From contig CT868013.1 of assembly GCA_000165425.1 (NCBI GenBank), positions 186,001-250,000 of the forward strand: 64,000 bases of DNA. The letters run 5' to 3'. Shown here one piece after another: positions 42,930-46,135 of the stretch. Each line of letters starts with the position of its first letter. Within the stretch, counting starts at the first letter, position 1. Both the position numbers and the translations under genes were made by a program. This stretch comes from Paramecium tetraurelia (Eukaryota). Below the pieces are notes generated by a model. The model searched no databases. It had not been told where the DNA came from and was given only the letters and a program-made list of their open reading frames with translations.

Positions 42930-44046
42930 TCATTTAATCCATTTAACTAGTTTGCCATCCTACCATTATCCTTTCCTACTCTTACCATCCACAGTTATAT
43001 AAGTTCCCTCTCCATTTTATTAACCAAATTGCCACTCCCCTCTATATTCCTTACCATCCACCCAACGATAGACTCCATAACCATGTTTTTGATCATTCAA
43101 ATAATTTCCAATATATTTGCGACCGTCGATCCAACTATATTCGCCTTGTCCATTCATCATTCCATTTTTCCATTATCCAATATAGCCTCTTCCATCAATC
43201 CAATGATAAACTCCCTATCCATGTATTTTATTATTCAACCATTCTCCTTCATAATAACTGTTATCACTCCAGACATATTTGCCCTTTCCACATTTCATAC
43301 CTTTAACATATTGACCTTCATAAAATGATCCGTCAGCCCATTTCTCTTTTCCAAATCCATGCTACAAATCATCTTCCCATTCTCCTTCATAATAGGCTCC
43401 ACTAGGTGATTTCAATATCCCATATCCACATGCTTTGTTATTCCTCCAATGTCCATCATATTCTATTTTATCTGCATGACGAAATATGCCTTTGCCATTC
43501 GCTTTGTTATGTTACCATTCCCCTTCATAAGTGGCTCCATCTGGCCACTTCTAAATTCCTTACCCATGTCTCTCATTTCCTAACCATTGTCCATTATATA
43601 ATTTAAGTAATCTAGGGAATCAACTATTTAATACTTCTACGATTTTGACTCATTTCCCAATCTGTCAAAATAACTGCCTGTTGATTTGCTAACCTGACTG
43701 CTAACACTTGTTTGACTCTTTATCATTGAATAGACTTCTTTTCTCACTTTATATCCTCTCCAATGAGATTATATTTTAACTATTGCTTTTGTCTTCTTTT
43801 ACTTGTCTTCTACCATATCAACTACGCTCTTTGTAATCGGTTTTTACATCAAATCACTCTTGCTACCCATCTAAACTGTATTCTGTTAAACATTATTTTT
43901 TGAACTGCGTTTACTAGAAGATTCAATTGGTTTCTCCGATAAAATTTGTTACTGCTCACTTTTCTAAAATAGACACTTATAATTACGACAATTTCTAGAT
44001 CCCTTTTATAGCAGCCAGTGCATTGTCCTCCACAATTATTTCCCAT
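42930..44046 (-). CDS. MORN-repeat protein with IQ motif and N-terminal acylation motif
   Basis: MGNNCGGQC; VKIQSHWRGYKVRK; many YxGxWxxxxxxGxG repeats. Confidence 0.92.
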
Positions 44047-44177
44047 TTTTATAATTATTAATAACTGTATAATTCGTATTTCGCTTTTTTGAGATAAAAC
44101 TAAATATATGAATAATGAGAGAACCCATAATTATTAATTATTCATTTTTTCTTACCAATATACAAAAACTCATTACT

Positions 44178-44290
44178 CTTTGTATGATGAAAATATTCGT
44201 TATCGGCCTTAGAGCATGCTGTTGTTACTCACATACGAACCCGTGAGTAAGCCTGTGTGTTCTGTGATTACATTAACCAATCTGAAATTT
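44178..44290 (+). ncRNA. candidate box C/D snoRNA with antisense to SSU rRNA
   Basis: ATGATGA 44184-90; CTGA 44282-85; internal hairpin with G-U pairs; TTCGTTATCGG and ATTAACCA complementary to the conserved 18S segment TGGTTAATTCCGATAACGAA (rRNA sequence recalled). Confidence 0.65.
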
Positions 44291-44494
44291 ATATTTAATA
44301 GTCCAAAAGGATTGTTTTTTATTTATTTTCTAATGCAACGATTAAATCCATTATTAGATTTATAATACCTAAAATTTAATAATATATTTAAGTAACTAAA
44401 CATTCATTCATAATCAATGATTTTTAATGAGTTTTGAATAAAATAACATAAGTTAAAATTAACCAAATATACAATTTAGTGATTTACTTTTAAA

Positions 44495-44535
44495 AGAACT
44501 ATAATTTACTATTTTATAAGAACTATAATTTACTG
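44495..44535 (+). repeat. short direct repeat (17 bp x2)
   Basis: aagaactataatttact repeated with a 7-nt spacer. Confidence 0.85.
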
Positions 44536-45402
44536 AAATTTTTAATCATTATGTCAATAAAACTTATTGGAAAGATAATACAATAAATGCGGGTGGCTAT
44601 AAAACGATTGTGAGCTCTATCTATATAGTCTCCCTCATTTTTATAATTATTTACCCTTCTATAAAAATCTAGCATATAGTTATGATTTAAAGAAATTCGA
44701 ATAAATTATTAAATATAATTAAATAGATTTCTTAATCATATATAGCTTTAAGCAAACCAAATTAATTTATGTAAGATATAACTAAATTTGTTTTTAACAA
44801 TATTTAAATCAAGAGACATTTCATTATTATTCTGCAGATTTTTAGGACCTGATGCTTATCTTGTAGTTAGGAATTAAATTAATTGTTTTTCTAAATTTAT
44901 TATATATTGTTTGATTTTGTCATGGCAATTTGTTTTTAAATTAAGAGCAATTTAATTTTAAGATAATTCATAAAATGGTAAAATAAAATATTCAAATAAT
45001 TTTATGAAAAAAGAAATTTTTTAGAAAAAAATTAGATTTATAAGAAATTATAAGAATGTCTTTTCTTATAGCTACACCCTACTTTTTAACATTGAGATTT
45101 TAGTGGATATTTTACTTAATAAATATTTAAATATAAGTTAAGATTGTATTATTTTTATTAAGATTACTTTTATTAAATTGGCAAAATGAATTTAAGATAC
45201 AGTAAATTTAATGAATTAGTTTGGATAAATGAAATAATAAAATATTTATTTTAAAAATTATTAAATCATTTTAAAGTTGATGAATGACCTTAAGATAAAT
45301 TTTTATTGGAAAATTGTAAATAATGTGTTTAAACGATAAAAATTATAAGGATTACGATTAATAAAAGGATGATTTATTTGATGTAGCTAGATTCAATAAA
45401 TA

Positions 45403-45914
45403 ATGTAATACGTTCCTTTGACTACACATCTAAATGCTTTAGCTCAATTATATTTGCAATGTGCGAGTTTATCTGAGAGATGTGATAAATTGGCAAGGGG
45501 AGAGGAAATAATGAATGAAGAAAAATAAATCCCAAATCATAATGATCAAGGGAGAATAGAAATGGGTTATGATCCACTGTCAACTTTTGAAGGCAATAAA
45601 TAAAGACAAATAGATTCAAGATCAAACACACCTATAGAGATAAAGTATTTTGATAATGATAAGATAGCATAGTTGATGAAGAAGAGGAGAGGATAGAAAA
45701 AAAAGATGATAATCCAATTTCTCATTAAACAAAAAAGATAAAAAGAGTTTAAATTTAAGGAGTAGACAAATAATAATAAATATAGTGCTCATAATGTAAA
45801 TAAATATTTAAGAATCATAAATAAATGAAGAAGCATTTTGAAAGATCTCATAATACTAAATCTACAAAGAAAGGGAATAAGAAATTATCACAAGAATTCA
45901 TGGTCTAACTTTGA
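45403..45914 (+). CDS. C2H2 zinc-finger protein
   Basis: MQYVPLTTHL...; a 23-nt intron restores frame; CSQCKQIFKNHKQMKKHFERSH. Confidence 0.75.
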
Positions 45915-46135
45915 TATATTAATAAATAAGGTTATTTATATGTATGATATGGTAAAATACTCTATGTATTTGTATCAGTTTTATCTTTATATTCTGAAAA
46001 TGCTCCCTCATTGGAGAACGAAATTCATAAAGATATTCACTGTAGTTCAAGGGATGTATATAAAAAAGAAAAAAACTCAAATTTGTAAAACCGTATATAA
46101 AATAGATAACTGATAATATAATTTAAATAATTGAT

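Follow-up and report, generated by a model that had tools for sequence, protein, structure and literature searches.

Within the 64-kb stretch of DNA analyzed here (the window; G+C content approximately 21–34%), a box C and a box D enclose a hairpin and two short sequences that a first-pass annotation had read as complementary to adjoining segments of the 18S rRNA. This arrangement raises the question of whether the locus is a working gene for a small nucleolar RNA (snoRNA) of the box C/D class and, if so, what an RNA with two antisense elements for a single place in the 18S rRNA would do there. The stretch is nuclear ciliate DNA, since translation of the part between 40 and 48 kb of the window with the ciliate nuclear code gave 33 open reading frames (ORFs) of at least 80 amino acids, compared to 2 with the standard code; the organism is probably Paramecium-like. 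The region from 44300 to 46100 (approximately 1.8 kb) is highly AT-rich, with 22.5% G+C in 44001–46000, and is without a convincing ORF in the ciliate code; some 1.8 kb is a long intergenic region for a compact ciliate genome. Direct reading of the sequence confirmed every element that had been named, each in the place where it had been put, and the features of the locus are as follows:

44121 to 44130, plus strand: promoter element (upstream sequence element), GAACCCATAA, agreeing with 9 of the 10 positions of the consensus AAACCCATAA
44180 to 44290, plus strand: C/D snoRNA in its approximate mature form, about 110 nt, both ends being placed from the boxes alone
44184 to 44190, plus strand: box C, ATGATGA, which fits RUGAUGA (direct reading)
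44196 to 44206, plus strand: antisense element 1, TTCGTTATCGG, with 11 perfect pairs to SSU model positions 1325–1335
44211 to 44263, plus strand: internal two-tier hairpin, found in both the minimum-energy fold and the centroid
44211 to 44219 and 44255 to 44263, plus strand: outer hairpin arms, AGAGCATGC and GTGTGTTCT, with three G-U pairs
44226 to 44233 and 44243 to 44250, plus strand: inner hairpin arms, TTACTCAC and GTGAGTAA (direct reading)
44264 to 44270, plus strand: putative C′-like box, GTGATTA, agreeing with 6 of the 7 positions of RUGAUGA
44272 to 44279, plus strand: antisense element 2, ATTAACCA, with 8 perfect pairs to SSU model positions 1316–1323
44282 to 44285, plus strand: box D, CTGA (direct reading)
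44297 to 44320, plus strand: 3′ trailer, an 8-bp hairpin (44297–44304/44309–44316) that runs into T6 (44315–44320), from the fold

Both hallmarks of the class are present, box C (RUGAUGA) lying near the 5′ end of the RNA and box D (CUGA) near its 3′ end, and among the 41 C-box matches in the window the box at 44184–44190 is the only one accompanied by a complement to conserved rRNA. Elsewhere, at window position 1387 on the minus strand, a sequence resembling box C (RTGATGA) has, no more than 25 nt further on, an 11-mer that is antisense to a single metagenomic rDNA locus (L012); this candidate lies outside the conserved rRNA core and is probably a chance match.

Signals of an independent gene flank the RNA on either side. 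When both strands were scanned, AACCCATAA at 44122–44130 was the sole match in the window and, with 0.83 chance matches expected there, is not significant by itself; from the end of the promoter element to box C there are 53 nt. The consensus AAACCCATAA is reported 53–125 bp 5′ of mature Tetrahymena C/D snoRNAs and also at Paramecium ncRNA genes (PMC3273799), and the same source describes runs of 3–13 T no more than 35 bp downstream as typical of monocistronic Tetrahymena snoRNA genes. The 3′ trailer hairpin, which passes directly into T6, resembles a bacterial intrinsic terminator. On the other side of the promoter element, and in divergent orientation, an ORF on the minus strand (43849–44145) encodes a protein beginning MGNNCGG, which resembles an N-terminal acylation signal; the ORF seems to start near 44045, some 75 nt away from the promoter element of the snoRNA.

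The first-pass annotation had used a hairpin containing G-U pairs to assign the RNA to the plus strand. The same two-tier hairpin is present in the minimum free energy (MFE) fold of plus-strand 44176–44292, which reaches −25.7 kcal/mol (z −2.19) and was equalled by 7 of 200 shuffled sequences, whereas the minus strand reaches −16.2 kcal/mol (z +0.22) and was equalled by 110 of 200. The plus strand is supported by this comparison, since it folds better than its shuffles and the minus strand does not. In the MFE folds, the sequences flanking box C and box D formed no terminal stem with each other; we do not hold this against membership of the ciliate class, since such a stem is reported to be absent from most Tetrahymena C/D snoRNAs (PMC3273799).

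The 44180–44290 region is an independent, transcribed, plus-strand box C/D snoRNA gene. The gene had been proposed from its letters, and the proposal is now backed by RNA-derived contigs and stranded reads that cover it. Two 110-nt contigs of run X17 span 44227–44319 and then continue into 17 untemplated A; one of them is exactly the window sequence, and the other, from a paralog, has 6 differences. Since the 17 A are not in the genome, these contigs derive from an A-tailed plus-strand RNA that ends in the T-run, and both of them place the 3′ end of the precursor at 44319. A-tailed ends within a T-run could arise through Pol III termination followed by oligoadenylation. The stranded run X24 contributed 13 raw reads, with the on-gene reads restricted to bins 44202–44285 and their first mate on the minus strand, which denotes plus-strand RNA in most stranded libraries. 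The contig data give no measure of abundance, and the read depths are modest. A few further X24 reads fall at 43971–44033, on the strand opposite to that of the snoRNA reads. An RNA run with another organism label and 9% of the words, X20, placed nothing on the stretch and speaks for neither side.

A second copy of the gene is expressed as well. A 297-nt contig of run X19 corresponds to this copy over 44101–44316, with 14 differences and 4 gaps, and the listed differences spare boxes C and D, the promoter element, the inner hairpin and element 1. Within 44101–44180 the paralog departs from the window by 3 substitutions and 4 one-base indels, all of them outside the promoter element; since the two copies can be aligned over the 80 nt 5′ of the RNA, the promoter region is conserved between them too. 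In the outer stem, G>A at 44257 preserves pairing by replacing U-G with U-A, and T>G at 44263 removes the terminal pair. The differences at 44194 and 44286 lie in spacers.

What these elements would pair with was first given as a conserved segment of 18S rRNA to whose adjoining parts both halves are complementary with one U between them. The segment so named proved correct. The exact reverse complement of both elements, with one free base in between, was found in at least 92 metagenomic stretches, and the free base was T in 92 of 92 among the matches listed; 6 of the listed stretches were run against Rfam, and all 6 were complete SSU_rRNA_eukarya. In locus L030 the target occupies SSU positions 1313–1320 and 1322–1332, which are positions 1316–1323 and 1325–1335 of the Rfam model. 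By complementarity, then, both elements would grip a single 20-nt stretch of conserved eukaryotic 18S rRNA.

The Rfam consensus folds this stretch into a hairpin of 4 bp with a 6-nt loop (1315–1318/1325–1328), enclosed by a helix of 6 bp with 1331–1336 as its 3′ strand, and we infer that the target is the small conserved hairpin 3′ of the 5′ strand of helix 34. Element 1 pairs with the 3′ arm of the hairpin, a 2-nt linker and, of the enclosing helix, 5 of the 6 nt that form its 3′ strand; element 2 pairs with the 5′ arm together with most of the loop, whose last U is left free. The calculated duplex energies are −15.8 kcal/mol for element 1 and −8.3 kcal/mol for element 2. When the snoRNA was cofolded with a 44-nt stretch of 18S rRNA, its hairpin was retained and both duplexes formed simultaneously, at −42.4 kcal/mol, compared to −25.5 and −7.1 kcal/mol for the snoRNA and the 18S stretch folded singly. 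The cofold supports the proposal that the hairpin brings the two halves together.

Chance was assessed by simulating 150 windows of 64 kb and searching each for an 11-mer and an 8-mer antisense to neighboring parts of the SSU rRNA, with a target gap of 0–3 nt and the elements 20–110 nt apart. Such split complementarity arose in 45 of the 150 windows (56 loci in total), and it is therefore not significant alone at the scale of the window. An upstream C box together with a downstream D box was found at 0 of the 56 chance loci; the real window contains exactly one split-complement locus, and that locus bears both boxes. These figures bear on a further reading, namely a genuine C/D snoRNA in which the complementarity of ATTAACCA is fortuitous, with the true target lying elsewhere, for example in the LSU rRNA or another RNA. 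Element 2 is AT-rich, offers 8 pairs only and is mutated in the expressed paralog, and bipartite matches without boxes were frequent enough in the simulation (the same 45 of 150 windows) to lend this some weight. Nevertheless, once element 1 is given, an adjacent 8-mer appeared in an 11-nt spacer drawn from the window in only 1050 of 2,000,000 draws (approximately 5e-4), and the 8-mer observed here lies exactly where a guide is expected in relation to box D. We therefore regard a fortuitous element 2 as very improbable.

The reading that we favor, and to which we give about an even chance, is that element 2 directs 2′-O-methylation and that element 1 provides accessory pairing for docking or opening. 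The putative RNP would bind the pre-18S rRNA at the small conserved hairpin, where element 1, as the "extra" pairing, would invade the 3′ arm and the enclosing helix, dock the RNP and open the hairpin. Element 2, in the 11-nt spacer 5′ of box D, would pair with the 5′ arm and the loop, and fibrillarin would 2′-O-methylate the second G of UGGUUAAU, at position 1318 of the Rfam SSU model. The internal hairpin would meanwhile keep the two pairing elements side by side, a continuous 20 nt of rRNA being gripped with one U out.

The placement of element 2 speaks for this assignment. Within the D spacer of 11 nt it pairs at positions 3–10 upstream of box D, and C44277, the fifth base 5′ of box D, stands opposite the second G of UGGUUAAU. 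Since methylation falls on the nucleotide that pairs with the fifth base before box D (PMC3116282, PMC9226516), this geometry makes that G the predicted target of an ordinary guide. An antisense element was taken to be in guide position when it ends 1–3 nt before box D or D′, as element 2 does, and its 8 pairs are at the lower limit, the minimum guide length being given as 7–8 pairs (PMC5464676). After element 1, by contrast, there was no D′ box with an unpaired GA to match the C′-like GTGATTA: the sole GA there belongs to TAGA at 44210–44213, which is base-paired in the outer stem of the MFE fold. It is because no D′ box with a free GA follows element 1 that we read this element as the accessory one.

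The paralog complicates this picture. Its T>A at 44273 reduces element 2 to 6 contiguous pairs, at −6.5 compared to −8.3 kcal/mol, and since element 1 has no difference between the copies, element 1 is the better-kept half. The change in element 2 weighs against an indispensable catalytic guide role for it, and the expressed paralog with its weakened element 2 is a natural mutant at hand.

The same observation favors a reading in which the roles are reversed or doubled, element 1 being the methylation guide, or a second one, served by TAGA as a degenerate D′ box and by GTGATTA as C′. The fifth base upstream of TAGA would then be G44205 and the target the second C of the CCG in the 3′ arm of the hairpin, with element 2 acting as accessory pairing or as a second guide for the nearby G. 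Besides being free of paralog differences where element 2 is altered, element 1 is the longer of the two (11 pairs, −15.8 kcal/mol), GTGATTA matches 6 of 7 C′ positions, and tandem G-A/A-G pairs may be drawn between TAGA and GTGATTA. Moreover, highly divergent C′/D′ motifs are reported to be active in yeast, where D′ guides serve 36 of 54 methylations (PMC3116282). However, the GA of TAGA is engaged in the outer stem in the MFE fold, and the alternative stem register that would free TAGA is probably broken by the paralog change at 44257, which improves the MFE register. In addition, 3 unpaired bases would separate the duplex from TAGA, and no more than 2 are said to be tolerated (PMC5464676). 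On balance, a guide role for element 1 seems to us unlikely, although it is the most credible of the alternatives.

A less likely reading still, and in our view a doubtful one, is that the RNA does not methylate at all and acts as a clamp or chaperone, opening the hairpin and its enclosing helix or presenting the free U or the CCG to another enzyme. Such a role might lie in the assembly of the 18S 3′ major domain, by analogy with domain A of U14 or with snR4, snR45 and SNORD13. The pairing covers nearly the whole target hairpin, CCG, the specificity motif of NAT10, stands at the junction, and bipartite C/D guides for a modification other than methylation are known (PMC5464676, PMC9226516). The order of box C, antisense element, hairpin, antisense element and box D is as in U14 with its Y domain, and at approximately 110 nt the RNA is longer than the typical ciliate guide of 55–77 nt (PMC3273799). 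Against this, Rfam gave no U14, SNORD13, snR4 or snR45 match at E values up to 10, the geometry of the D spacer suits an ordinary guide, and the read depths are modest, although they are not a measure of abundance. The C of the local CCG is paired and not looped out, and the layout described for snR4 is different, its first guide lying 5′ of box C and its two duplexes leaving a 14-nt loop of rRNA (PMC5464676).

The CCG itself can be compared with the acetylation site of helix 34. In the 40 nt 5′ of the target there is a U at −37, a G at −35 and a CCG at −27 to −25, a spacing that matches Um1269, Gm1271 and ac4C1280; the helix-34 site would thus be a different CCG, 26 nt 5′ of the target, and this likewise speaks against the clamp. 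The helix-34 acetylation site was accordingly rejected as the target, positions 1269, 1271 and 1280 fitting the upstream U, G and CCG and not the CCG of the target. If the clamp reading were nevertheless true, it would extend the principle of snR4 and SNORD13 to a new site, with a tighter pocket of one nucleotide, and a non-catalytic RNA would mean a new factor in rRNA folding, acting on a universally conserved hairpin in the 3′ major domain of the 18S rRNA.

To return to methylation by element 2, 2′-O-methylation of the corresponding nucleotide is not known from yeast or human rRNA, and a poorly targeted search of the literature found no ciliate methylation data for SSU model position 1318. 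If true, this reading would add to the map of ciliate rRNA modification a snoRNA and probably a lineage-specific ribose methylation. It would also provide an unusually clean natural case of accessory pairing, in which a perfect 11-bp and an 8-bp duplex fall on one hairpin and an internal stem lies between the two elements. Whether both duplexes can be held at the same time was left as a question by the authors of PMC3116282, and the present RNA is a possible test case for the simultaneous binding of one rRNA strand by both spacers of a single C/D RNP.

Whether the gene belongs to a known family was examined in several ways. The whole window had no match in Rfam at gathering thresholds, and 44100–44360 searched with E values up to 10 returned 5 sub-threshold matches only. 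The best snoRNA match on the plus strand, SNORD74, scored 12 bits against a threshold of 41 and was confined to the region of box C; the best Rfam match overall was TtnuHACA8 on the minus strand, which reached 19.8 bits where the threshold is 50 and was dismissed as noise. The pattern of elements 1 and 2 with box D had no match in genome contigs or viral contigs, collections in which ciliate DNA is scarce. The catalogue of Paramecium snoRNAs compiled by Chen et al. (2009, PMC2661823) is described in another paper as having been built by way of the promoter element upstream of conserved sequence, and since the present gene has both, it may well be in that catalogue already.

The Tetrahymena TtnuCD snoRNAs share with the present gene AAACCCATAA upstream, a T-run downstream, the lack of a terminal stem and internal base-pairing (PMC3273799). 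In the supplement of that study, one Tetrahymena guide pairs with 17S positions 1294–1305, thereby overlapping the 3′ end of our target and continuing 3′ of it. Neither antisense element is present among the C/D sequences given in the supplement, which come from a non-exhaustive library, and its text contained neither the core of element 1, nor a G-for-A variant, nor the corresponding words of the 17S rRNA. TtnuCD32, a long C/D RNA to which no target is assigned, was considered as a homolog and rejected, its guides being different.

U14 has the same order of parts, with boxes C and D outermost and one antisense element on each side of the internal hairpin, but these elements are directed at two distinct sites in the 5′ portion of the 18S rRNA, unlike the single stretch here (PMC3273799). 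The site of its B domain is C462 in human and C404 in Tetrahymena, and the RNA is described there as having a dual role as chaperone and guide.

The first-pass annotation had also been reminded of C/D RNAs that guide other modifications, and snR4, snR45 and SNORD13 (U13) do, like the present RNA, place two elements on either side of an 18S site with CCG (PMC5464676, PMC9226516). In snR4, as described in PMC5464676, the first guide (nt 1–5, before box C) pairs with 18S 1286–1290 and the second, in a loop after C′, with 18S 1264–1271, and these imperfect duplexes leave unpaired a 14-nt loop that includes the target C1280. Here, in contrast, neither duplex has a mismatch, a single U stays free, the CCG is paired, and box C stands 5′ of element 1. 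To the extent that these systems are described in the sources cited, the likeness is superficial, with a single U free and CCG inside duplex 1.

The same annotation had judged the geometry unusual for a methylation guide, a view that is not supported, since van Nues et al. (2011, PMC3116282) describe conserved extra antisense elements adjoining a methylation target in 13 C/D snoRNAs of yeast and in many human ones. Extra base-pairing of this kind is reported to raise methylation up to five-fold, it is found with the shortest guides, and its proposed roles are docking and the opening of local rRNA structure (PMC3116282). In our comparison, the C/D methylation guides with extra base-pairing are the closest known kind. 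As in the present RNA, a second antisense element adjoins the guide target in yeast snR75, snR76, snR70 and snR87/U16, among others, and snR70 has a stem between D′ and C′ like the internal hairpin described here (PMC3116282). The adjacency that defines the extra pairing is present at our locus with a gap of 1 nt, its conservation being known from two paralogs only. What sets the present RNA apart from these guides is that its presumed accessory element is longer (11 pairs) than the presumed guide (8), that element 1 fills the entire C-to-D′ spacer position, and that the two targets are only 1 nt apart.
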